A stretch of 64,000 bases of DNA, from positions 53,878,001 through 53,942,000 of the forward strand of contig CM097888.1 of assembly GCA_044892525.1 (NCBI GenBank). Direction: 5' to 3'. The DNA is from Schmidtea polychroa. Lineage: Eukaryota. Below are positions 11,561 through 60,160 of this stretch, piece after piece. The position numbers were made by a program, and so were the translations under genes. The number at the start of each line of letters is the position of its first letter. Position 1 is the stretch's first letter. A model generated the notes under the pieces. It had not been told where the DNA came from, did no database searches, and worked only from the letters and a program-made list of their open reading frames with translations.

Positions 11561-13610
11561 GTCCAGTTTTGGTGACAAAGTGATCTGATTCGAAATTACT
11601 GGTAATAATAAAAGCCAAATAATCTCAAAACTAGTCTGCCATTAGAAATGTCTAAAACTTTATTTTCTATACATTATTTATTAAAAAGCTTGAATATGAA
11701 TCACTAAATATATCAAAGAAACATCGATATATTTACTGATTCATAGTCTTCAAGATTTTGTTAATAAATACAATGTATACATTAACTAGATAGTGTATAT
11801 GTTACAGTTAAAGTAGACAGTCACTAATAAATGTATATATTAACGTGAATTTTTAGACAATAATAAATTGCACACTATATCCAGCTAAAGTATGCAGTAT
11901 TGCAACATGATATACTAGAATGACATTTATGTATTTTAAAAGAGAATGTATACATGTATAAAATAATTAAAAAAAGTAACAAATTGAAAGTTTATTTTAC
12001 GGACCTTTTACAATCAAATTCAAAACATTTCACGCACACAAAGATCTAATTTACATAAATATAAATCCAAATCAAACAAACTGCAACAGAAAATCAAAAT
12101 GCCAAATGCTTAGTAAAAGAGTTCAAATTAAAACAAAATCTCTCAAATCAAATGAGTTTCAAATGTTTGATTTATTGACAAGCACTAAAATTACAGGAAA
12201 AAAGGTGAAGATTTTTTAAAAAAATCTAGGAAATGAAATAAATGCAAATATTTCCATTTGTTGTCAACTGAAAATAAAAACCGATATGAAAGAATAAAAA
12301 TGAGAGTTGAATTGCTTACGAAGTCAAACAAAAAAGAATAATTATAGAAAATTCATTAAATAAATCAAAAAGTTTTATTGTACATTTATCAAACAATAAT
12401 TCGTTTTCATGGAGTTGAATTAATTTATATTTGATTATTGTTATCATGAATCAAAAGACTTTTTCAATTGCTCTTTCGATATTTCCGGAGGGTCGTCATT
12501 TGCATATCTGCCGGTTAAGCGAACATTTTTGTTGAGATTTGGTAGTCCCATTTTTTTGGCTGATTTAGGAAGAAATTTACTCAAATCATTTTTACAATTA
12601 AAAAAGGAATTTAAGTTTAAAATAATTATTTCGTATTTTGATTTATTAGAATTTTGATTATGTTCATTAAATTAAATTTATTAATATAAAAAATGTATAT
12701 AAAATTTTATTTATTTATTTTTTCTTCAAAGTTAAAATCTCAGACATTTATTACACAAATAAGCGTTTATCTCTGCATCTTAAATATCTTTAAATAAGGA
12801 TTAATTATTTATAATTTAAAAACAATAACAAAAAACCGCCCTAGAACCGAAAAAAATCCAAGTAAATTATTTTTTATTACCCAATGTAATGATAGATTTT
12901 AGTAGTTCNNNNNNNNNNNNNNNNNNNNNNNNNNNNNNNNNNNNNNNNNNNNNNNNNNNNNNNNNNNNNNNNNNNNNNNNNNNNNNNNNNNNNNNNNNNN
13001 NNNNNNNNNNNNNNNNNNNNNNNNNNNNNNNNNNNNNNNNNNNNNNNNNNNNNNNNNNNNNNNNNNNNNNNNNNNNNNNNNNNNNNNNNNNNNNNNNNNT
13101 AATTGCTTTTCTACAAAAAAAATTATCAAAAAAATATTTTAATTAAAATATTGCAAAATATTTTCAAACTGAACATTAATTAAATAAAAGTTATTTGGCA
13201 TTTTAGAGCAGAAAAGGCGGTAGCATTAAAAGATAAAGAAATATAATTCACCCATTCAAGTGGAAGAAATAATATTAGATTTCTCATTCGATCAATGCTA
13301 AAAATTTCATCGACAGATTATAAAAAAATTCAAATAAAAAATCTAATTATTAAATCAACATTGAAAAAGAAATAAAACCGATCCGGCCATAAAACTAGAA
13401 TTAGCTCGAAAATTCTATGTTGAATAAATTAAATATCACTGTTCAATGGAAAAAAAAGATTTTCGAAACGAATTATAATGAAACAGTTATTTTTTTGGAT
13501 TTTAAATGTTGGCAACATTTAATAAAAATCAAAATTGTTTTAGTAAAATTTATTATTTAAATATTTGATCATAATAATTCATTTGATAAACATTCAGGAT
13601 AAATTAGTTA

Positions 13611-13745
13611 TTATTTGAAAAAGGCAGTGCGGAAAATTCGTGAGTATCAAAAAACATCGATTTATTACTGATTTATAGTCTTTAAGCTCTCTTTTTAATA
13701 AATATGCTTGAAGACTCTAAATCAGTAATATGTCGATGTTTTTAA
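13611..13745 (+). repeat. Penelope-associated terminal repeat family A with U3-A8 hammerhead-like motif and short inverted arm
   Basis: ttat-TTGAAAAA-GGCAGTGCG-GAAAATTC-GTGAG at 13611-13644, then acatcgatttattactgatttatagtc and its inverted copy. Related copies near 11700, 19070, 19630, 26940, 35145 and 59695. Confidence 0.65.
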
Positions 13746-15750: not shown

Positions 15751-16257
15751 TTTTTCTAAGCGCACAAATTCAAGAAATATAATACTATTAAAATATTATT
15801 TTTTGTATTTTTTGATTTGAAAGACAGTCATGGAAGTCAATGAGACTCACATAGGCTATTCCATATTTTATGTTTCACTGAAAGAAAAATAAAAGTGAAG
15901 TTTCCCAAAGCATTTATTGGACTTTTAGTGTCTAATTGAAAGTCAACAAATGCAGGCGTTGATAAAATATATTACTAAGTGTTACATTTAAAATTATAAA
16001 TAATTCTAATTTACATGAACACCGCTGAGCTAGTAGTAAAAAAGATAATTTAAAAATAATTAAAAAAACATGTTCAAAGGCAAGCATGAATACGTATAAT
16101 AATTATTTCAATATAGTCGGTAAAAACAAATAATATCATTAATTAATATTATTAGACGGAAAATAAGTAATTTAATTCTTATAAGCTTATTATCAAATTA
16201 GGTAATCTAATTTTGATATTAAAATACCATTTATTTTACAAAACCAAATAAAATAGT

Positions 16258-16622
16258 AAAAAAGGCCGATTGATTAAAGCACCAGCACTCAAGGCTTCCA
16301 TGAAAGCTTTGATAACTAATCTGGCGATTGTACCGAGATTGTTGATGAGTTCAGCTTTAGTCATACCGACTCCATTATCGTACAATGTCAAATTATTGGA
16401 ATCTTTATCTGGAATAACTTTAATCATTGACTCCTTTTGGCTATCCAAGACTGATTTACCCGTTAAGGTCTTATAACGAACTTTATCAAGAGCATCGCTA
16501 TCATTGAAAATCAATCCTTTAAGGAAGATTTCTTTGATTGAAAAGGTGTTGATGATTAAGCTCATCAACTGAGAGATCTCAGCTTGGAAATCAAAGGTTT
16601 CAGCTTCTCAAATTTTTGACAT
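16258..16622 (-). pseudogene. HSP90: Hsp90 N-terminal fragment, intronless, with in-frame stop
   Basis: ATG at 16622: [49 protein letters not shown]...[34 protein letters not shown] at codon 5; the FYSN motif is shortened; similarity ends around the DISMIGQFG region. Confidence 0.9.
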
Positions 16623-18121: not shown

Positions 18122-19069
18122 TTAACTAAATAATAACCTAATTTGAAATCCTTAATCCGTTTATAGCCAGCGTTCCAAATAGAAACAATTAAAAATAATT
18201 GTATATTTTATATTTTCAAATATTTTTTAATTTTTCATTTTAGTTTAATATTTATTTCACAAATGTTCTAGTTTTATTTGGAGATTTAATACATAAGCTT
18301 ATAAAATTGTTGTTATCTGCTATAAGTTGATATCCGAAGAACTATAGGAAATTTGGTGCCAAATGGTTTAATCTTATTTAATTAACATAAAATTTACATA
18401 AACTATAAGAATAATAAAATTTAAATCACATAAATCATACAAAAAAGTTCTATACTTTATCCACGAAACAAGAACTACTAAATCCATTCAGAAATGTTTC
18501 TATAAGGCTATGTATGTCCCTTGCTATATCTTGCTTTTGTCATATTTACATTTATCGGGGATAATAATTATACAATGGCACGGAATTACATTTTAATGCA
18601 ACACTATTAACACGTCTATATCATTTGTATATTATTTCCCAGGCAATAGTTACAAGTCTCGAAAATTTCTAAGAATGCAAATATGTTCATATTTTCATTT
18701 TTCTATCAACATTTTTTCACGTGTATTTTTTAAATAATAAAAAATATTCAAAGCAACATCTACAATCGGGTGTTTCTTAGGGTGTCTAAAGAAGTAAGAT
18801 TTTTCTTCTATGTTATAACAAAAATTCAAATTTTTACTGTTCCTCAATCTAGAATAACTAGTAAAAATTATTAATTATTTACAATTAAAAATAATAAAGA
18901 GGTTGTAAATAAAGTGGAATTGGGTGAGGAAAACAGGGGGAAATTTTATTTAAATACAATTTTTGAAAATTTCCAGCTTACTAATTGTTTCTAACATTTA
19001 TTATTGAAAAATAATATTATTTTGAATGTTAATTTCTTTTAATAGAAAATTAGTAAGAATGATAGATGT

Positions 19070-19745
19070 TACTGACTATGAATCAGCAAAGATATCGATG
19101 GTTTTTTGATATTCAGTAATTTTCGGCAAAGCCTTTTTTGAATGATTTTAATCATTATCTATTAAATTTTGAAAATATGGGGAAAAATGAATTTATTTTG
19201 TATTATATATTAATATTATTTGTCAATTTTAATTTTAATTTTTAATTTAAAATTTTAAATAATATTAAGTTTTAAGATAATTTTGATTTAAATTTTACAA
19301 GTTTTTTTAAATAAAAGTTTTTTGATAAGAATTTCTGTGCTTAATCTTTGTAATGTATTTTTGAAGGCATCTTGTATCATTAGGCATTTTGTTTCGTGTA
19401 ACAGTGGTGCTGATTTCTGTAGTATTTTCCGGTGTTCGAGATAATTACTGGTTTTGTTTTTGATGTGTTCGCTGAGTCCTGTTCGAAATGTTCTATGTGT
19501 TTCCCCTATGTACGATGCGTCGCATCTTGTGCAAATGATTTTATATATAATATTTTTTGAAAAGTAAAAACATTGTGTAGAAGAGTGGCATAGACAATCT
19601 CCACGAAACAGGTCTGATGCTGGTCTGATATATGAATCAGTAAATATATCGATGTTTTTGATATTCACTAATTCGTATTCTTTAAGCTTTTTAATAAATA
19701 TAATGGAAAAGATCAGTGGTGAAATTGGTAAAAAAGTTCTTATAA
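19070..19745 (-). mobile_element. Truncated Penelope-like element: GIY-YIG endonuclease fragment between family-A direct repeats
   Basis: ORF 19668-19288 contains IIYKIICTRCDASYIGETHRTFRTGLSEH. Repeats tatgaatcag(c/t)aaa(g/t)atatcgatg...ttttgatattca occur at ~19078 and ~19631. Confidence 0.8.
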
Positions 19746-20039
19746 AATATATAATAGAAAATCACCAACTAAGTATATTAAAATATAACATTGCTATATA
19801 TTTCAACCGTTTAACAATCTTCTTCAGGCTAAGAATCGTATTAATCAAAACTAAACAAAAATAATAATATTCAAACAAGTTAACAAATAATAATCGTTAT
19901 CAAAGTTTACCAAAAAGATATTTTAATAAAATTTTAAAAAACATTTTTTTTAATTATATAAAAATTATTTTATTTTTAAAAACGCACACAATTGTTAACA
20001 TTCTCTAGATAAGAAGATTGTTTCAACGTCTTGCAAGGT

Positions 20040-20286
20040 TCGTAGCATGTTCAATAATAAGTCGACAACTTTAGTAGGTCTGTGTTCAGAACTCTTGTAT
20101 CAATTTTCACGTAATGGGTGTAATACCACATATATTGTAGATTGCCTATGATTTCTGCACTCGAGTTCTTGAGCATTGCCGACGGAATGGATTGACCCAC
20201 ATTAGTGATCATTTTAAGAAGTGTACCAGTAAAAAAATAAGTATTGCTGATTTTATGATCTTTGCCTAAAGAAGACTGTTGACGAT

Positions 20287-20290
<4 letters not shown>
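20040..20290 (+). mobile_element. Second Penelope-like GIY-YIG remnant ending in a decayed hammerhead-like motif
   Basis: YQFSRNGCNTTYI...TRVLEHC...HISDHFKKC with a frameshift, then cctaaagaagactgttgacgatcaaaa running into (TA)n. Confidence 0.65.

Positions 20291-20357
<67 letters not shown>
20291..20357. repeat. (TA)n microsatellite
   Basis: Direct observation. Confidence 0.95.
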
Positions 20358-26200: not shown

Positions 26201-26939
26201 TAAAGATATATTTTATTCACACTTTATCACTTTGAAATATTTAATATCGACCTAAACGGAACGGAACACGCAATTCAATTTATTTGACATATGAGAATAC
26301 TCAATTATTCATCAAGTGCAATAGCGTTTTCCTATATTCATAAGTAAACTGTTAAAAAGAAAATTTTCATTTTTTATATAAAAAAAATAAATTCGTAAAA
26401 TGGATGTCTATACAAAAAATATTCATAAATATATATTTATTAGTCTGGCATTCATCTCTCACAATTGTTTCATTAATTTCATCTGGATTTGAAGAATCAG
26501 GGAGGTAGCTAGGGGTGGCGGGCATAGTGGATTATTAAATATAAGTTAGGGATGGCATATTTTAATAATATCTTTATTTTGGTTTTGTTATTAGAATTGT
26601 ATGAGAATAAAAAAACAATGTATATTTTTAGTTAAGTCTTTTCAAATACAAGACAGTACAACTATGCTCGTGCTAGCTATTCCCGTAGTTTGTGGGTTTT
26701 TTCGGCACAACAAAGTACACAGAAGAGAGCCGGTTTAACGCGCGCAACCAACCCACACTTCTCGTATATGGCACATTTACGGGTGTTAGAAATACCATGA
26801 ATGATAAAAGGTTAAACGGTTTGGCTTTGTTATATTCATCAAAACATTAAAATAAATCCAGATGAAATACTTTCTGAATTAATGAAGGTACAAAGAAGAA
26901 TTAATATTATATTGTAATATATTCTATATACATAATATA

Positions 26940-27135
26940 CATTATTAAAAAGAGAGTTTGAAGACTATAAATTAGTAATATATCGATGTTTGTTGATACT
27001 CACGAATTTTCGGCACTGCCTTTTTCAAGTGAATTTTCAAAATTCAAAAAAGGCTGTCTTCAAACTCTCTTTTTAATAAATTCAAAGGAAATAAAAATCA
27101 GTGGTGAAATTGGAAGAAATAAAAGTTCTTATAAT
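26940..27135 (-). repeat. Penelope-associated family A repeat with inverted arms
   Basis: ttattaaaaagagagtttgaagac ... gtcttcaaactctcttttaataa inverted arms followed by the family tail aatcagtggtgaaattggaa; close copy at 35145-35315. Confidence 0.75.
26999..27033 (-). ncRNA. Minimal type I hammerhead-like motif with U3-A8 core variant
   Basis: 5'-UUCAC UUGAAAA A GGC-AGU-GCC GAAA AUUC GUGAG-3'. Stem I UUCAC/GUGAG, stem II GGC/GCC, palindromic AAUU helix III, UUC cleavage triplet. Confidence 0.6.
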
Positions 27136-28805
27136 AATAATATACATTGTTAATAATTAATAATAAATTTAATCTTAAAATATTTTTTTCTATTTTTCCG
27201 TGTCAACTTTTAACTTTGCTCGATGAATTGTAATAATTAATAATTCCCCCCCCCCCCCCAAGCTGCGAAGAATATATATTATATTAGTGCGAAGAATATA
27301 TTATAAAAGAAAAAAATAAAAAAAAGAAAAGAATGAATATAGCAACAGTTGATTAAGGAAATCTTTACTATACAAAGCTGAACAATACAAAAAAAAGCTA
27401 ACGGTTTCACCAAGAAAATAACGTAAAGCCATTTAAATCAGTAAGATTATTAAAATAAGAGTCTCTAAAATATTCCTTGAAAAGTTTGAGATGACATAAA
27501 TACTTCAAATAAAGAATTAATATTTCATAGACAACATTAAACCGTATGACAAATATTTTAGAGATTGATAATCTCAAATCTAAATTAGATGTATAAAAAA
27601 GACAGATTTTAACATACTATTTTTCAATGTAAAAATATCATTTTTGCAATATCTCCTGAGACAAATGTCCTATATCTCTCGTGACTAACAACTTTTGCAT
27701 CATTTACTCTTTTAATTACTTTTCATAAAGCAAAATGCTTTATTTCATATCAAAATGACTTTATAAAATATAATAAGAATATTGAAAATAATAAAAAGAA
27801 CGACAAAAAATATTTTTTAATATTGATTGTTTGTCATTTTTTATATAAAAAAATATTTTTGATCAATGATGAAAATAAAAAACTTTATTAATATTCTAAA
27901 TATAATAATTATCAATTTTCTAAACACCGTGTAACTCTTTAAAATTATTACAGCAGTGCATAATAATTACTAAAAATTGTTATAGCAGCAAATAATAAAT
28001 CATTTCCAAATTAAATATTTTATATACAGACAATTTGTACGTCACACTTACTTGACTTTTTTATATCAATACTTCAGAGTCTAAAAAACTTAAAATTGTA
28101 TGTAAGTTTGTTTGTAATTTTGGTAGTTCGAAAAGATCTTGAAGTCGGTCTCTTATATTGGACTGTATGAAACTAACAAGTGTATATACATACAGGTAAT
28201 ACACACATTCTTCCACTTATATCAGATTGAATTTGGAAATAGTTTATGTTTATAAAATAATTTCAATAAAAAAATCATAATGTTGAATAATTTTCCTACA
28301 TAAATAAGATTATGAATATGTTGTCATTTTCAATATCAAATGTTATTAAGGTGATTAACATCATATATAATATGTAATATTGCTTAATTCAAGATAAAAA
28401 GATTTAAAAAATATTTTCGTAGAAAATAAGAAAATAATATTTCATCACAATTTGATAATTGTATAGATTTATTTAAAATAAAAATAAAAATTTTAGAATT
28501 TAGAAAATTTATATTTGTGACTTCAGAATTTTTAATTTTTATAATTGAGATATTAATCTTTTAAATATCCGATTGGCTTGAATTACATAAAATACACCTA
28601 TGCACGAGAGGAAGGAATCTAAATTGAAGTCAATATCGGTAAGTCCCATTAGATTGCAGATTATAAAAGGAAACTCAACCTGAATCAAAAGACTCAATTT
28701 GTAAAGGAGAAAAGAAAACAGAATTAAAACAAAACCCAAGGTAAATTACGAAATTATCGAAAAAACGATTTTAAACGAATTAAAGTCATTGATAAATCAA
28801 GTTAA

Positions 28806-30397: not shown

Positions 30398-32389
30398 CAC
30401 CTAACCGCGAAAGTTAACATTGTCTATAATATACGTTGGTGTGCACACCACCTGAGGTGAGTCACCAATTATATGACAATGTTAACTTAATTTCATTTAT
30501 TCTATTTTTCAAAAATCATTTTAAGGTAAGTTTTTGAATTGAAGTAATTTTTAGGACTTGAATTTTGATTTTATATAATTATGAGATCATTATTCAAGTT
30601 CTTAAATATTACTTTTAGTCATCATTTATAATTTATCATTTATAAATATATTAATAATTAAATTTCAGTTGTTTTTTTAGGAAATCTATGATATTTTATG
30701 CATTAATATGGAATTATTTCGCTAAAATGTAAGTTAAATATTTTTATATTTATAAATAAATAAAGTAATCACCATACACATTTATTTTTTTAATACATTT
30801 AGGGAAAAATCGGCGTACATGAACGAAATAGTTTTTTAAATTTTTATAATCTTCTTTCTGTAGCTCATTTTCGATGGCTTCTTTGACGATGTCAAATCTG
30901 CTTGGGAAGGACATTGAACTGAATCCATTTGTCCTTGATATTACTTTTCTGATGCTGCCTTTGATTTTACTAAACACGCTTTCTATTGGATTGAGGAATG
31001 GGCTATATGGTGGTAGGTGTTCTATATAATTATTCGGAGAAATTGCTCCACTATGAATTGAAGCATTGTCATGAATGAGACGGTATCCTGTCCCATTCAA
31101 TTTTATACTTAATTCATTAATAAAATTTTGGTAGGTATCCTTTTTGTAGGATCCTACAATTAATCGGTGATGAATTGCACCTTTCACACCTATTGCTAAC
31201 AGAAATGACATGTTTTTTCCTCGATTATTTGAAACTATGGAGTATATTCCTTCTCCTTTTTTCTTCCTTCCATAGGTTTGTGTAGTCCACGTATTGAAGC
31301 TGCATTCATCAATAAAAACGAGATTTTTATCTCGCCAGACTTCTTCGAGAAAGCGTGTGACATACTCCATTCGGATTTGAAGTACGCGATCTGAATTTCT
31401 TGCTTCCACACATGGTCTTACCTTTTTAACCGTTATTAAGTGATTTTTTAGAAATCTTGAAATAGCAGTTGTGGATGCCGAGCAATTTTGTTGTAACAGG
31501 AAAATTCGCATTTCTTCTAACGTTGCATAAAAATTGGCTTCGACAAAATCCAACAAATTATTTCCCTGTTCTTCTGAAATAATTTGTTTTCTGCCACTTC
31601 TTTTTCCTTTTGTAATTTCGGCATATTTCTTATATTTGTAAATTATTGAAATAATTGAATTTTTGGGGATTCCGAGCAATCTTCCAAATTCTTTATAATT
31701 GTCCCCATTTTCAAATGCATTAATAAGCCGAATTTTATCTATTTCTGTAATTCTTTGAAAATATTAATTTGTTAAAATAATTTATTAAAATTTACGATTT
31801 GCGATTATTTTTCTGCAAATTCGAAGTTGTTGAAGGACCTTCTTCAATATTTGAAATGGTACCTTCACGCAAAGAAATATCTGTTATACTGTAAAATATT
31901 TTAATATTTTATATTTTAATGAATAAATCTTACATTGTCAGATCTTCAACTTCGCAAAAAGCCACTGTGTCCTGTGAAATATCTGTAAATCTAAAGAAAT
32001 TTTATATTCCAAATTATTTTATAATTAAATCTTACGATATATCTTCTTTTTTTTCCCTAAAGCTCAACGTAGAGCAGTCGGAATCTGATTCAAAAGTTTT
32101 TTTGTACATAATTTTTTAAATAATTTAAAAATATTGATATGTTAATTATATGTTAATCAATCTGAATTTCGCATGAAAAACACTTTACTTAATTTTGTAT
32201 GTATTTTTCATTATGTGTGCTGTGCTTGTATGTTTAATTATTTTCTCTCACTTTTTAGATTCCTATAATAAATATGTTAAATTTCGCGGCATTAAATTTC
32301 TACACACAGGTAAGTTTGTGTGTTCCTATAATATATATTTATTGATTTTTTTTTAGATTACAGATAATGTTATATTTCGCGGTTAGGTG
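30398..32389 (-). mobile_element. Apparently full-length IS630/Tc1/mariner-superfamily DNA transposon, 1992 bp
   Basis: TA|CACCTAACCGCGAAA at both ends (15 bp perfect, ~28 bp imperfect TIR), TA TSD, encloses a transposase ORF. Confidence 0.85.
30750..32109 (-). CDS. Tc1/IS630-like DDE transposase; predicted 4 exons (32109-32036, 31990-31934, 31888-31796, 31752-30750), 408 aa
   Basis: HTH-like N-terminal region plus LVFIDECSF, LIHDNASIH and LPPYSPFLNPIE motifs. The unspliced frame has no ATG; three GT-AG introns (45, 45, 43 nt) join it in frame to an ATG at 32109 (1227 nt total). Core ORF confidence is high; splicing is predicted. Confidence 0.85.
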
Positions 32390-33049
32390 TAGAAATTGCA
32401 CACACGATTTTTGTATTTTACTCATTAAAATTTTCTACCCTTTTCTGAATTCTATAATCAATGAAAATAATATTTAAATAATGTCTTATGTTATATATTT
32501 GTTTTAAAACAATAATTGACAGAGTTTTCTCGAAGACATAAAACATTTTTCTTTTTTAATTTAAACATAATTTTTAGAAATAAAAACGATTCACATATTT
32601 ACAGAATATAAATGTGAGAGCCATTAAAATTATTCATCACTTTCCTGTTGTTAGATTATTTCAAAAAATTAAGAAACCATTTTGTTAATTAGTTTTTTTC
32701 AAAATTGAAAATATTTTACTTAAATTAACTTATTAATTATAGTTAATTTGTCAAATAACTACAGAAAAAACAACATATATACAATGCAACGTTTATGAAA
32801 TAAGGTTGCTTATACAAATTTTCTTGATTTTTAGTTTTAAAATAAACTNNNNNNNNNNNNNNNNNNNNNNNNNNNNNNNNNNNNNNNNNNNNNNNNNNNN
32901 NNNNNNNNNNNNNNNNNNNNNNNNNNNNNNNNNNNNNNNNNNNNNNNNNNNNNNNNNNNNNNNNNNNNNNNNNNNNNNNNNNNNNNNNNNNNNNNNNNNN
33001 NNNNNNNNNNNNNNNNNNNNNNNNNNNNNNATACCCAGTGGAAATCCCA

Positions 33050-33091
33050 ATAGTAGACTAATTTCGAGCTTTTGGCTCTCATCAGTACTAT
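33050..33091 (-). ncRNA. Complete minimal type I hammerhead ribozyme motif
   Basis: 5'-AUAGUA CUGAUGA GAGC-CAAAA-GCUC GAAA UUA GUC UACUAU-3'. Perfect 6-bp stem I, 4-bp stem II, canonical core, GUC cleavage triplet. Confidence 0.85.
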
Positions 33092-33437
33092 GCAGGAGAC
33101 GCGAAGATTTCTCTTTGCGCCAGGTAAGTATACAATATCGCTGATTCAACTCTATTGCATACTTTCCCCGGTACACTGGAAATCACATCACTTGCTTATT
33201 AGCTTGGCCAAAGATAATATGTAAACTTGTAAACATGGAGTATGAAAAATCATAATCACTTCTGCGGACTAAAAGATTAGTCAATACACAGAAACTGTTT
33301 ACAAGTGCATCCGATTACCTTTAGCATTTTTAATTTATAAAGTAATGGTGTAAAATATTTTTGTCGGATGTCTTACATTTGAATAAAATAAACTTGAATA
33401 AAAACTTACCTGGCGCGACAAGAAATCTTCGCGTCTC

Positions 33438-33476
33438 CTGCATGAGAGCCAAAAGCTCGAAACTAGTCTACTATTG
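33438..33476 (+). ncRNA. Damaged hammerhead copy (9-nt deletion of stem I 5' arm and core start)
   Basis: ctgca-tgagagccaaaagctcgaaactagtctactat; lacks tagtactga relative to the 33050 copy but keeps a perfect ACUAGU helix III palindrome. Confidence 0.7.
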
Positions 33477-33571
33477 GGATTTACATTGGGTGTCACAAAG
33501 CTTGTGCCGTTTGTTTTATTCAAGTGTAAGACATCCTACAAAAAAATTTTACACCAAAAATCTTTTAAAAT

Positions 33572-33659: not shown

Positions 33660-35144
33660 GTAACAATAATAAAGTGAAATAAGAATAGATTATGCTAAAT
33701 ATATATTTAAGCAGTACACAAGTAAAATGATTAGGAATTAAATTAATGTCTAGATCCTTAATTAAATATTTCAATTACGAAAAGAAATTCTTGTATAATT
33801 ATATATTTCATAAATCATTTTTCTTTTATTGCATTTGTTTTAACTTGTTACAATAAGACATTTGTGAAATAATTTTAACAAAGTAGTTTAGTAAATGAAA
33901 GGAAAGTTGACATAGACTCGTGAAGTAAATGTAAAATAAAAAGTAACTAAATAATCAAGAATGGGGATGGAAATTATAAATTTACAAACAAATGTTAAAT
34001 AAAATAATAGCGATAATTATAACCATGATGAAAGCCAAATTGAATTTATATTATAAAAATTTATTTCTACTAAAACTTAAATTATTTTAATTTATTCTAT
34101 TATTCCTCCATTTATCTCTGATTAAACAAATCATGTTCTTAGATTTTGTCATACAATATTTATATTAATATCCGATATTTTTAATAAATTTTTCCATTCA
34201 GCGTCAAAAATAAATACTGCATATATACATTATAACATTTTAGTCTTTTAAAACGCAGTGTATGAGTTTTCCGGTGGCAGGCAACAAGATTTTACATTGA
34301 GATAAATTTTGTATAATACATTTGTATATAAAGTAGTCAATAATACAGATTGGTATGCAAACCAATAGATGACTCATAATTTGTCAGTTATTATATTTTT
34401 ATCAAAAATTAAAAAAATTGTTTTTTTGGGATTTTTTTACAATTTTTAGGCAATGATTTCCAAACTTAATGATACTAAGCCCCCTTTTAATATTGTATAT
34501 TTAATTTCTAAGGTATGTTTTGATAATCTTTAATTAAATTTACTTTCTTTATATTTTCATTTTATTTATGCATTTTGAGAAAAATGGCGAATATTGATAA
34601 AATAATGTTTATATATTAATGTATTTCCTTTGTTAAGTCTAGTTTTTCAGATTTCTAAATTATAAAAGCTAAATTAATTTTTATTTATAAATGAAATTAG
34701 TTCTCATCGTTTACTTTGTTCTCTTTATTTTCACGATAACTCATTTTTGTAATAAATTAATTTTATTAGTGTTTTCGGCATTACATTCTAAATTTATATG
34801 TTATTTTTTTCTAAAAAATTAATTTTTAAAATGTTTTTATTTCATTCAACAATTACACATATTGAACGTTGTACATGCATTTTATACACCTATTTTCAAT
34901 GAATAAAAACTTCTATAATCTAAAAAAAATCAATAATTTTATAGTATCGAAACACAAACTNNNNNNNNNNNNNNNNNNNNNNNNNNNNNNNNNNNNNNNN
35001 NNNNNNNNNNNNNNNNNNNNNNNNNNNNNNNNNNNNNNNNNNNNNNNNNNNNNNNNNNNNNNNNNNNNNNNNNNNNNNNNNNNNNNNNNNNNNNNNNNNN
35101 NNNNNNNNNNNNNNNNNNNATGAATAAAAACTGTTAACATATAA

Positions 35145-35315
35145 TTTATTAAAAAGAGAGTTAAATGACTATAAATCAGTAATATATCTATGTTTATTGA
35201 TACTCACGAATTTTCGGCACTGCCTTTTTGATTTATAGTCTTCAAGCTCTCTATTTAATAAATTCAATGGGAAAAATAATCAGTGGTGAAATTGGAAAAA
35301 AATGTTCTTATAATG
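35145..35315 (-). repeat. Penelope-associated family A repeat, hammerhead core truncated
   Basis: Near-copy of 26940-27135; retains aaaaaGGCAGTGCCGAAAATTCGTGAG but lacks the upstream cacttg. Confidence 0.7.
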
Positions 35316-38696: not shown

Positions 38697-39763
38697 TGGC
38701 GACCCTGGCAATGATCAATAAAATGATCCCAGATATTTACGATGTCAGCGTCGATGTAGAAGTTTTTATTGGAGGTATTTCCAATTATGTGGACTAGAAC
38801 AATCCAGTCAAAGGATGATAATCAAATGTTTGATCGCAAGAGAGTTGTTGCAAATTTATGAAGCAATAGAAGAAAATGAAACTTGTTTTGAAGACAGATT
38901 GAAAAAAACTTTCAAGAAGCCAACGACGTTGATAGGGGATTTTCTAACCCTCTGCAATTATGAAAAGAACAAAAATACTGCCCCAGTATATTTCGAAAAA
39001 ATAGAAAAGATGGTTGACCAAGTTCTGAAGCATAAATGTGACAAGAAAGAATTAATGTCATATCATTTGGTCCATTGAAAGAAATAAAGATGAAAATGTG
39101 ATGAGCATTGACGAAATAAAAGGAGTGATAAGGTCGATGATATAGACATTGAAGTATCCGGAATTTCAGTTCTAAATAGAAGGAAGGAAACGTTTGCAAG
39201 TATTGTCAAAACAAGACAAGAATTTGCCGATAGACAGAACCAAAACAGAAATTTTACAAATTCACAACGGAGTGAACAAAGATATGATTCAACACCGAGG
39301 ATGAAAGCCGATAATTTCCAGAACAAATTCCAACAAAGAGAAATGCTGGTTAGAAACAGACCAGTTATTACATGTTGGAATTGTCAGGAGATGGGTCATA
39401 TGAGTCGAGAATGTCGGAAACCAAGGATTCAGAAATGCTTCCAATGTTGAAAAGAAGGGCACCAATCCAGAGAGTGCAATCAGAGAGCACATAATGCAGA
39501 GATGAGATGTTTTGCGTATTGGACACAACAGAAGAGAATGCCCATCAATATTGTGCTCAGGATGCGGTAGAAGAGGCCACTTACGATTTCAATGCTGGAA
39601 TCAGACAAACCGAAAAAGATACGCAGACGAGCGTGGACCAACGAGACGGACACAAGTAGCCGCGTTTCAGACTGAAGCCGAGAACGACGAAAAGATCTCA
39701 TGTCAAGACGAAGACTACCCAAACCAAGAATCTTTAGACGAGATGATTGGGGCAATAAATTAA
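38696..39763 (+). pseudogene. Frameshifted gag with four tandem CCHC zinc knuckles; pol absent
   Basis: CWNCQEMGHMSREC, CFQC*KEGHQSREC, a frameshifted CFA..GHNRREC, and CSGCGRRGHLRFQC; stops and frameshifts upstream. Confidence 0.85.
38697..38709 (+). promoter_or_regulatory. Putative primer-binding site TGGCGACCCTGGC
   Basis: TGG complementary to tRNA CCA directly after the LTR-terminal CA; TGGCGACC would fit a tRNA-Arg-type 3' end (inference). Confidence 0.65.
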
Positions 39764-41279: not shown

Positions 41280-42230
41280 TATTCCGCATCCCTCGATTTT
41301 ATTTAAATCTTTTCTTTTAATACGATTTGCTCAATAATTGGATGATTCTTTGATTGAATGCGTTTTGCAAAACATTTATATAGTAAGTTTGGCGCTTTAT
41401 TCATCATCAAATGTAAAGGTCCAAGAGGAAACTATATTAGTTTGAGCGTGGAAAATGAAATAAAGCCAATGAACAGGATAAAAAATGTGGTAGAAAATAC
41501 TTTCTCAACAATATATAAGAACCGGAAAGACATCAAATCCGACCTTTATGAAAATCCGCAACAAAAGAAATTCAAAATGATAAGAAATGGAAAACACAAT
41601 GATCTTGACCAAGTTGTAATAACATTTGTCAACGAAGCCCTCATACAGGAAAAAGCAAAGCAATTGAGCAACAATATAACAATTGATAATCTTTGACCCA
41701 GTTCAGGTTGGCTTCAAAGATTAAAAAATTGAAATGTTCTGAGATGGAAATGTCTAACTGGGAATGCTGCTCAAGCTTATGAAAGTGTTGCAAATGAATG
41801 GCTAGTAAATGCATTTCGGGCATTACTTTTACTTTATAATAAAAATGATATTTTCAATGCTAAAACCAAAAAGGAGCGCATCGCACGAATGGGTTGTACT
41901 AATATGGCTGGTTTGGAATGAAAGAAACCCTTCAATTATTGGACTATCAAAGAATCCAAGTTGCTATAAAAATATTACAAGCTTTCCAGTTGACTACGAA
42001 AATAATAAAAAACCTTTATTTGAAAAATGGCTCATTGAACTAAATAAGAAGTTTAATCAAGAACACAAAAGTTCAGCTCATGGAAAAAGTGAAAAAGAAT
42101 AAATAAAATCCATTAGATTGGAATGTTTCCACCAAATCTTACATCGACAATAAACATTTTATCAAAGGTTTGGGATACAAAACTAACTTCAACACTAATT
42201 GAAAACTGTTTCCATAAATCTGGATTCATT
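41280..42230 (+). pseudogene. pogo/Tigger transposase remnant (CENP-B-like HTH plus DDE fragments)
   Basis: STIYKNRKDI..RNGKHNDLDQ..IQEKAKQL..SSGWLQR, then NMAGLE..IIGLSKNPSCYKNITSFPVDYENNKK, and VWD..TLIENCFHKSGF. Confidence 0.85.
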
Positions 42231-47544: not shown

Positions 47545-47684
47545 AATGAATAATTCTGCCTCCATTTCTATGTCCAATGAATAATTCTGCCTCCATTTCT
47601 ATGTTCAATGAATAATTCTGCCTCCATTTTTATGTCCAATGAATAATTCTGCCTCCATTTCTATGTTCAATGAATAATTCTGCC
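47545..47684. repeat. 31-bp tandem repeat, ~4.5 units
   Basis: aatgaataattctgcctccatttctatgt(c/t)c repeated; the last unit is interrupted by a hAT MITE. Confidence 0.95.
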
Positions 47685-57018: not shown

Positions 57019-57050
57019 ACACTTGAAAAGGCTGAGTCGAAATATAGGGT
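57019..57050 (+). ncRNA. Minimal hammerhead-like motif with U3-A8 core
   Basis: acac-TTGAAAA-GGC-tga-GTC-GAAA-TATA-gggt; a second decayed motif lies on the minus strand at ~56975-57005. Confidence 0.4.
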
Positions 57051-57515: not shown

Positions 57516-59279
57516 GTGAGTGAGGAAATTGTCAACATTTTTAAGTATTATTTGTTTATTTAAATAGATTTCTTGTAATCTAAGAGTCAATTGATAAAAA
57601 TTTATAAGTAAAATTTTAATTGTGCATTTTGTGCATTATTAATTGATTATAACAATTTTAATTTTAAATGTTTAATAGCACTCTATTTTAGGTAGACATC
57701 GATAGGATTTGATATTTAAATGCAATCTTTTAAAAAGGCATAAATGAAAAAAATATACAAGTCAGATTTGAACGGTGACTTCTAAAAGATGCAGTTGGTG
57801 TGAGATATACAAGACGTCGAGACAGATTTTATGGAATGCAGATTTTTGCGTACCGAAGCCATCAAAATGAAGAATATACATTAAACAACTGATAAATCTG
57901 CCTTTTTACTAATAAGAAAGCTGTAAAATTATTTCATTTAAATATTAACGTCGTTATTAACTACTGACATAATTTAAATTTCTGTTTAAATTATCCGCAA
58001 TAATGTTTGATGTTTAAAACGATGAATAATTATCCATGTAGATTTAATGGATAGTATTTCAAAAAATTTCTACTTACAGATTTTGCCCCTGATTTCATTA
58101 ATTACAGAATTATATATAATTAAATATCAAAATAACTTTTAATCCAATTATTTTTTGGTAAGCAACTCAAAATTCAATTTAAACAAATTTCGAAAAAAAT
58201 AAATTACCATAATTTTTTTTTTCACGCGTTCGATTTGACTTTATATATATAAATTGAAAAGATAAAATCACTAAAAATCATTTCGATTTCAAAAATAATT
58301 TTTTAATTTGTCGATAAATTTAAAATTTTGAAACTGATACGATCTAAAAATGGGGAAATATATTTTATTTTTTGGCTTTATTTCATGAAAATAACAAAAT
58401 GGTCAAATTACAATTATGTACATGTCAGAGATTAAAACAAAAATTAATTAAAATTTTTAAATTAAAAATGTTGAATTTTTGATTAAATTTAAGAATTGTT
58501 ATGGAAAATGTAAAATTAATTGAATTAAATAATATATATAAATATACTTTTCAAATTTAAAAATTTTTTTTAAAATTTTTAATAAAATAAAATTTACTTG
58601 CGTTGGTAAGAATAAAAATGTTTTTCCTGAAAATTGAAATTGGAAATATAATTTTCAATAAGAGTTCAAATATTTCAACATGATATAACAAGCTATAAAA
58701 TACATTTGAGAAAACAATTTCGCCAATTTTCTCGTTCGTGATATAATGTAATTTCAATATATTTATTTTCAGTTTCAAAAACATTTATTATATATCATTT
58801 GTTTTAATTTGCCTAATTCTTTTTTATTTTCTATACAATAATAAACCTTGATCTTTTAAACGCCAATTGAAAAGAATTGATACTGATTCCTCGTCATTTA
58901 TTCTTTCCGCTACTTTTAATATTATTTTCTCTTTTTTCTAGGTCGTTCATTTAAGGATGAAATAGATATACAATTAATAACAATTAGAAATTCATAATAA
59001 AATATTCGACCCTTACAACATTTGTTTATCCTGTATATTTTTTTCAATAATAATGTGATTGGTGTGAATTGAATACTTGACTTTAAATCTTACTGGTTGA
59101 GTTTCATTATTTTAATAAAGGACATGTGAGTCAGATTATTAACTATTTTTCTACCGAAACAATTATAATAACCCATCGAAACGTAGAATTGACTAGCAAA
59201 GGAAATAGATCGAATCAAAAATTAATATTTATTAATACTGTTTATCTTGACAATTATAAGAAATACGACATAAACTTAC

Positions 59280-59556
59280 CATTTTCTAATTCATAACAAA
59301 TTAGGGGAGGTTTAGCCTTCTTTCTGCATTTGATGATGACAATTGTTATGAAACTGCCTAAGGCTAAGACGCTGATTATAACTGCTATAGTTATAACTAT
59401 CATTTCTTTATTAATTTTCTCTTTGTTTTCGTTCGAATGAACATTATTCTTTGGCGATAAAGGCTGCGAATCATCAATGGTGATTTGGAGTTCTATACTT
59501 GATGACTTTGGGGGGTTTCCTCTATCTTTACCAATAATTACCAATTTGTGAATACC
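59280..59556 (-). CDS. Cadherin-family gene exon: end of last EC repeat, transmembrane helix, start of cytoplasmic tail
   Basis: tatatttcag acceptor, G|GTAAGT donor; GIHKLVIIGKDRGNPPKSSSIELQITIDD (A.D.G.P..S motif), hydrophobic MIVITIAVIISVLALGSFITIVII, then KCRKK. Confidence 0.85.
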
Positions 59557-59734
59557 CTGAAATATAAATATTTTTATTTAAAGGTAAACATTACTAAACA
59601 GATTTTATTTTTATTCGTATACATGTATTTTAGTTTAGAAATAATCAATTTTAGCAAAAATAAAATATCTATTGATAAATATATATTTATAAAAAAATTG
59701 ACTATGAATCAGTAAAGATATCATAAGACATCGA

Positions 59735-60160
59735 ATTGGGTCAAAGATTATCAAATGTTATATTGTTGCTCAATTGCTTTGCTTTTTCCTGTATGAGGAC
59801 TTCGTTGACAAATGTTATTACAACTTGGTCAAGATCATTGTGTTTTCCATTTCTTATCATTTTGAATTTCTTTTGTTGCGAATTTTCATAAAGGTTGGAT
59901 TTGATGTCTTTCCGGTTCTTATATATTGTTGAGAAAGTATTTTCTACCACATTTTTTATCCTGTTCATTGGCTTTATTTCATTTTCCATGGTCAAACTAA
60001 TATATTTTCTTCTTGGACCTTTGAATTTGATGATGAATAGTAAGCGTCAAGCTTACTATATAAATGTTTTGCAAAACGCATTCAATCAAAGAATCATCCA
60101 ATTATTGAGCAAATCGTATTAAAAGTAAATATATAAATAAAATCGAGGGGTGCCGGAATA
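59735..60160 (-). pseudogene. Second copy of the Tigger 5' fragment, inside the cadherin intron
   Basis: Nearly identical to 41280-41700 in reverse orientation. Confidence 0.85.

Follow-up and report, generated by a model that had tools for sequence, protein, structure and literature searches.

The stretch of Schmidtea polychroa DNA analysed here (64,000 nt, hereafter the window; 24.7% GC, 1,730 N) carries, near 27 kb on its minus strand, a motif whose letters match a minimal type-I hammerhead with U3-A8 in its core. The motif heads a repeat of ~150 nt, ordered as hammerhead, body of ~57 nt and optional tail of ~57 nt, which was found at five loci in the window (Table 1). Other features were also present. 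A 337-aa frame of the Tc1/mariner type, with DDE_3 and transposase HTH domains, occupies 30750-31763 (-), and a mir-753/bantam-like microRNA precursor (30548-30608, +; E 1.6e-12, 61.8 bits versus a gathering score of 62) lies 140 nt from the end of this transposase ORF; mir-753 is a family of planarian microRNAs, so the match points to a planarian. An HSP90-like fragment (16236-16607, -; Pfam E 0.004), a zinc-knuckle gag-like fragment (39112-39450, +; E 1.3e-7) and a frame resembling by eye an exon of a cadherin-type membrane protein (59254-59577, -; no Pfam match) were also observed. Two inverted copies, 41286-41704 and 59733-60153, are 95-96% alike over ~420 nt and hold a short frame with no Pfam match, and a 31-bp tandem of 4.5 copies lies at 47545-47684.

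Table 1 Features of the hammerhead-bearing repeat and the endonuclease relic at 19 kb (positions in the window)
Feature	Position	Strand	Basis and details
Inverted pair of body fragments without hammerhead	11675..11775	+	9-bp flanking repeat at 11668 and 11776
Copy with U3-A8 core and broken G10.1-C11.1 pair	13611..13743	+	Inverted fragment 13708-13743 behind
Decayed family copy, G5 lost, in 3' pLTR position	19050..19149	-	BLAST, alignment
C-terminal GIY-YIG endonuclease fragment with Cys-rich linker and stop codon, without RT	19288..19630	-	Pfam, HMMER
Same-strand body fragment 19673-19631 (-) and inverted tailed copy 19687-19753 (+)	19631..19753	-	BLAST
12-bp flanking direct repeat, left (candidate target-site duplication)	26932..26943	.	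Repeat comparison
Copy A: hammerhead and ~57-nt body, tail-less	26944..27036	-	BLAST; contigs cover 26942-27036
Minimal type-I hammerhead motif	26999..27033	-	Sequence, folding, descriptor search
Locus-specific junction with short inverted copy of the hammerhead's 5' half	27037..27055	+	Contig depth, folding
Copy B: inverted, more truncated, with tail 27080-27136 (~57 nt)	27056..27136	+	BLAST
12-bp flanking direct repeat, right	27137..27148	.	Repeat comparison; insert-free contigs
Second head-to-head unit	35143..35313	-	Copy A 35229-35144 cut inside core; inverted tailed copy 35229-35313

The minus-strand core of the 27-kb motif reads U3 U4 G5 A6 A7 A8 A9 (C2.1 at 27029, U3 at 27028, G5 at 27026, A8 at 27023, A9 at 27022), followed by an extra A at 27021 and then G10.1 (27020), which pairs with C11.1 (27012). 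The 3' part of the core comprises G12 (27011), A13 and A14, A15.1 (27008), U16.1 (27005) and C17 (27004), giving a GAAA box and a UH cut site, and cleavage is predicted at 27004/27003, after C17. Stem I has 6 bp and stem II, GGC and GCC around an AGU loop, has 3 bp and a 3-nt loop. Helix III is an AAUU palindrome (27008-27005) that forms no stable helix. The preliminary description had read the letters of the motif correctly, and its view that helix III is so reduced that a dimer would probably be needed also held, the 4-nt palindrome being all there is. Folded in isolation, the motif forms stems I and II (6 and 3 bp) at -8.5 kcal/mol, with 4 of 200 shuffles folding equally well. A strict U3-A8 descriptor, which was built to fit this motif, found it as the sole site in the window and matched in 4/300 shuffles. 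The 29-nt core, allowing up to 3 mismatches, occurs at 3 sites in the window, the source itself included, and in none of 100 shuffles. An Rfam scan of the window returned no family at gathering score, and at E values up to 10 the interval 26900-27200 matched no hammerhead family, giving three weak unrelated matches only.

The preliminary description had listed four related motifs. Three of these proved homologous to the 27-kb copy with their flanks included, at 93% (13611), 93% (35203) and 79% (19113) identity over 76-87 nt (BLAST). Their cores are damaged, the first lacking the G10.1-C11.1 pair, the second U3-U4-G5 at a junction and the third G5. Among the copies in the window, every core and stem position is present in the 27-kb copy only, and only there are the YUGANRA and GAAA boxes, the UH cut site and the 3-8 pair complete. 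The window copies look decayed or misfolded rather than maintained. The fourth motif (57019-57050, +) shares no flank similarity with the family. It is U3-A8-like, without the extra A, with an AUAU palindrome, A17 and one stem I mismatch, and lies inside an open frame of ~50 codons. It is one of two real matches to a relaxed descriptor, which was written after the motif was seen and matched in 3/300 shuffles, and is possibly a member of another decayed family or a product of chance.

Copies A and B at 27 kb stand head to head and share a perfect 24-bp inverted repeat, one arm of which is 26942-26965. This layout is common to the units at 27, 35 and 19.7 kb, with a shorter form at 11.7 kb, and an adjacent inverted 5'-truncated copy together with a one-sided tail was found at 27, 35 and 19 kb and in part at 11.7 kb. 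Copy A itself would be a 5'-truncated pseudo-LTR (pLTR) end. The starts of the copies are scattered (27036, 35229, 13611, 27056 and 19673), and a tandem-repeat listing of the window (22 rows) held no tandem array of the unit. Four of the five loci, all in AT-rich DNA, are flanked by direct repeats, of 12 bp at 27 kb, 11 bp at 35 kb (35132 and 35314), 11 bp at 19 kb and 9 bp at 11.7 kb. At 13 kb no flanking repeat was found, the longest shared stretch being 5 bp, and the inversion is opposite to that at the other loci. Repeats of at least 11 bp flanked 0.09% of 20,000 random pairs and 0.25% of 5,626 AT-rich pairs, and repeats of at least 9 bp flanked 1.0% and 2.6%, respectively; the unit ends for this comparison were chosen by the analyst, and the left end at 19 kb was shifted from 19073 to 19050 after its 11-bp repeat had been spotted by eye. 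A fold-back DNA element (MITE) that resembles a hammerhead by chance would account for the extended inverted arms and the duplications flanking several of the loci, and would agree with the lack of an Rfam hammerhead match. We give this reading scarcely any credence and regard it as largely refuted: the arms vary in length and position by locus, being internal pieces of one linear unit, the duplications range from 9 to 12 bp and are not fixed, one copy stands behind the endonuclease of a Penelope-like element (PLE), and all listed traits of PLE minimal hammerheads are present.

The connection to PLEs suggested by the preliminary description exists and rests on the locus at 19 kb. Here an inverted tail copy comes first, followed by a short tandem piece, the endonuclease fragment and the hammerhead, the whole bracketed by one 11-bp repeat (19040, 19752), and the decayed hammerhead starts about 140-145 nt past the endonuclease stop codon on the same strand. 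The endonuclease fragment matched the Pfam GIY-YIG profile at E 0.005, below cut-off; among its Atlas neighbours (0.95), GIY-YIG was present in 51% of members. A full HMMER search returned 207 relatives at E values of 0.001 or lower. Among the best 150 of the 207, 12 are at least 500 aa long and all 12 match the RT catalytic pattern; of the long relatives scanned, 7/7 match RVT_1, 6 of them above cut-off, with an RT followed by a C-terminal GIY-YIG. The Cys-rich linker of the fragment is of a kind described for the Neptune and Nematis clades. Word-indexed protein searches with the fragment alone found no relative (70 and 2 candidates). When 24 proteins derived from a profile search were compared with the window, they gave 16 matches to the fragment, a partly circular result given that the profile contained the fragment, and the same 24 proteins detected no other PLE remnant in the window. 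Neither an RT remnant nor a full-length RT-endonuclease element between two such repeats was found in the window. The link is seen at 1/5 loci, and the copy there, 79% like that at 27 kb, has a dead core.

Two coding interpretations of the repeat were not borne out. A few protein alignments enter 19631-19761 weakly as a coding linker, and its DNA match to the repeat is stronger (85%, 74 nt, E 7e-16). An ATG-led frame in the tail occurs in the 35-kb and 19-kb copies, with ATG the majority state at 27086; as the start of a PLE ORF it produced only 4 short matches (E 0.01-0.04) among the 24 proteins, at non-terminal positions.

A second, different PLE endonuclease relic (19999-20270, +; frameshift near 20140-20160) lies 250 nt from the 19-kb unit, head to head with it. 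Directly behind this relic is a decayed minimal hammerhead (20248-20300, +) that runs into a (TA)n tract, and on its 5' side there is an inverted C3-G8 hammerhead copy (19791-19832, -) with an AUAUAU helix III. With an unrelated PLE relic so close by, PLE debris clusters in this part of the window, which counts against the PLE link of the 19-kb copy. A further hammerhead family was observed at 33035-33125 (-), with a type-I hammerhead of the canonical C3-G8 form (C3 at 33085). A strict descriptor picks it out and matched in 0/300 shuffles, and Rfam HH9 matched it at E 0.36. An opposite-strand copy of this family with a partly lost core lies ~330 nt away, at ~33405-33485 (+). Both copies are preceded by ACTTACCTGGCGC, which we take to resemble the 5' end of U1 snRNA.

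To place the family beyond the window, contigs of four public runs (four studies) were aligned to 26880-27200, giving 25,003, 11,458, 800 and 439 records, a count that also takes in a host repeat flanking the insert. One of the runs, X8, bears the label of a second organism, while X1 may derive from the same sample as the window. X7 is RNA by guess only, none of 23 runs is listed as RNA, and small-share rows were left out. The contigs cover copy A and the tail and hardly cover 27045-27055; in run X1 summed depth, which was not taken as copy number, falls ~2000-fold over the junction at 27037-27055. In other copies the tail continues straight from copy A, as read from contig loose ends before 26942. 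From this coverage pattern it follows that the family is abundant and the 27-kb junction rare. Contigs that lack the insert and connect 26927 directly with 27138 (19 in X1, 10 in X5, 1 in X7 and 0 in X8) are consistent with an empty site in a host repeat. We consider it probable that the motif belongs to the pLTR of an endonuclease-bearing PLE, short 5'-truncated ends of which were probably copied many times through the genome.

The same data bear on another reading, in which the unit is a dedicated non-autonomous element of ~150 nt (SINE- or retrozyme-like) that stems from the pLTR of a PLE and is moved in trans, and the 19-kb copy is an older relative and no more. Four of the five loci carry no coding sequence, and many contigs stop at 27036-27037 with loose ends that agree poorly (0.44-0.46), as if most copies start near the 5' strand of the hammerhead. 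Against this, the window itself departs from the family at 27037, so that loose ends are forced there. Animal retrozymes have been argued to be pLTR-derived (bioRxiv 10.64898/2026.07.22.740005), and animal non-LTR retrozymes (PMC7229834) share with our unit a short non-coding hammerhead repeat, probably moved by PLE proteins. However, these retrozymes are tandem and mostly canonical type-I, whereas the unit here is dispersed, minimal and non-tandem in the window, and the scattered copy starts are those expected from 5' truncation. Overall, we regard a dedicated element as unlikely. Rather less likely still is a non-autonomous PLE derivative, ~150 nt long and present in very high numbers, each copy of which begins at the 5' strand of an uncut hammerhead, the fold being kept not for cutting but to mark an RNA start, a stop of reverse transcription or the binding of a PLE protein. 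If true, this derivative would have the smallest PLE hammerhead fold (3-bp stem II, 4-nt helix III, U3-A8), and with so many copies 5'-end statistics could be used to test the contested role of PLE hammerheads.

Microheterogeneity was apparent among the contigs of the four runs. The commonest listed change, G1.5 to A (24.6, 23.4, 17.5 and 7.9% of depth), is one-sided and turns a stem I U-G pair into U-A. Other listed changes at or above 2% included C17 to U (up to 9.9%), which is allowed, C11.2 to U (up to 2.8%), which gives G-U, and G1.1 to A (up to 5.6%), which breaks the first pair. G12 to A, a change expected to kill catalysis, reached 1.7-5.7% of depth. No two-sided compensatory change in stems I or II was among the variants listed for the four runs. 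Likewise, no change of U3 or A8 was among the variants listed at 2% of depth or more, and therefore U3-A8 is the inherited state of the family, the outcome of one event, with no repeated covariation. Selection for function had been proposed earlier from the joint change at positions 3 and 8 in several copies. This argument did not stand, because the copies descend from one ancestor and inherit one ancestral state, and because only 2/5 of the earlier-listed motifs (27 and 13 kb) are jointly intact at U3 and A8. With a single inherited event the argument from repeated co-change falls away, which does not show the swap to be neutral. The two changes, C-to-U and G-to-A, also run the way in which a sequence of 24.7% GC drifts.

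Drift alone would mean that an ancestral C3-G8 pair became U3-A8 under A+T bias, leaving the motif as a passenger without catalysis or as a fold to which protein binds. Each of the two changes is a transition towards A+T, they trace to a single event, and the variant at G12 points the same way. Catalytic mutants of the anole PLE hammerhead, whose cleavage is protein-assisted, kept undiminished insertion in vitro (Frangieh et al. 2024; PMC11167929). Even so, we judge this reading very unlikely, since the same swap occurs in schistosome PLEs (PMC4209133), U3-A8 has been reported active in vitro (PMC3088659), C3-G8 is retained by two further hammerhead families of the window, and the majority state keeps G5, G10.1-C11.1, G12 and the G-C stem II.

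Folding in context was also modelled. All four copies that bear the motif are predicted to lack stem I in their own context (probability 0.0), and at 27 kb the junction is predicted to pair with the core, blocking the hammerhead fold. Stems I and II of this copy reach probabilities of 0.86 and 0.93 without the inverted arm and 0.0 with it. The dispersed copies in the window are likely to be inert. For two units, a double hammerhead was modelled at -12.0 kcal/mol versus -28.0 kcal/mol for a stem-II-swapped dimer with helix III open, and this more stable dimer makes cleavage without help appear doubtful.

Under the PLE pLTR reading preferred here, a tandem source PLE would be transcribed, as suggested by published PLE biology. 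Its RT-endonuclease would nick AT-rich DNA and prime reverse transcription at either of two sites downstream of the hammerhead, yielding ends with and without the tail; synthesis would usually halt after ~100-150 nt, and a second, inverted product would join the first. The two kinds of 3' end agree with the pair of internal priming sites shown for the anole PLE (PMC11167929). Two hammerheads of the source transcript are predicted to pair via AAUU and to cut weakly after C17, probably with the help of a PLE protein. U3-A8 would preserve the 3-8 pair and would have arisen once in the ancestor of the family before being copied. Points against this scheme include the weakness of a 4-bp A-U helix III and a tail of ~57 nt that exceeds the 30-40 nt described for endonuclease-positive PLEs (Craig et al. 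2021, PMC8557442; PMC11167929). Features shared with the endonuclease-positive PLEs of these two papers include 5' truncation, partial tandems, an inverted neighbour, a tail at one end, AT-rich targets and a pLTR hammerhead after a C-terminal GIY-YIG.

The core itself has precedents. The preliminary description held that U3-A8 variants can stay active and that some natural hammerheads tolerate an additional nucleotide behind A9; two papers document both features in natural hammerheads (Perreault et al. 2011, PMC3088659; Cervera and de la Pena 2014, PMC4209133). The former describes natural hammerheads in which, as here, C3-G8 has covaried to U3-A8, citing in vitro activity from its ref. 32, and its section 8 gives the U3-A8 examples without PLE context or rate. 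The latter reports U3-A8 covariation in the Cercyon PLEs of Schistosoma mansoni (~1,300 motifs), together with the family traits of a base between 9 and 10.1, G10.1-C11.1 and a palindrome at 15.2-16.2. In its Fig. S3 the entry S. mansoni(4), flagged there as PLE-associated, has UUGAAAAA as its core. The novelty implied earlier for the swap is lost, as this same 8-nt core is already in print. Like the 27-kb motif, S. mansoni Cercyon has an identical UUGAAAAA, the extra base, G10.1-C11.1 and a two-base palindrome at 15.2-16.2, and it too occurs as dispersed single copies from truncated PLEs and as opposite-strand pairs. In contrast, stem II is 3 bp with a 3-nt loop here and 7-8 bp in Cercyon, stem I is 6 bp against 4-5 bp, and the palindrome is AAUU against ACGU. 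The alignment in PMC4209133 includes an A-U-U helix III in Crassostrea, the row with which our AAUU palindrome agrees, and for C. briggsae a stem II of 3 bp, GGC with GCC. The paper also reports low activity of S. mansoni hammerhead dimers and a C3-G8 state for the Schmidtea motif included there.

Literature searches returned no paper on this planarian family, although Lunse et al., on PLE hammerhead dimers, or repeat libraries may already list it. When a metagenome was scanned with a pattern that allowed any base at positions 3 and 8, L001 was the single match. It has C3-G8, shares the stems, the extra A and AAUU with the 27-kb motif, and is located 220 nt after a PLE endonuclease. The likeness of its stems was built into the search pattern; the PLE context was not. 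L001 (66-1084) consists of a PLE thumb-linker-GIY-YIG frame and the C3-G8 minimal hammerhead, followed directly by an RT fragment from a different retroelement (RVT_1 E 7.5e-10). Outside the motif, L001 hardly resembles the 27-kb family in its DNA, and it serves as a comparator rather than as a demonstrated relative.

PLE hammerheads with the U3-A8 swap, with the extra base and with a helix III that depends on dimers are thus already in the literature. What this family adds is a U3-A8 PLE hammerhead from a second lineage of flatworms, one that is unusually compact, and we infer that its U3-A8 state probably originated independently of that in schistosomes. L001, with C3-G8 and the same stems, and the 27-kb motif form a natural matched pair for the cost of the 3-8 swap. 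Finally, both CUGANGA searches and the Rfam scan used here overlook what is an abundant class of repeat.
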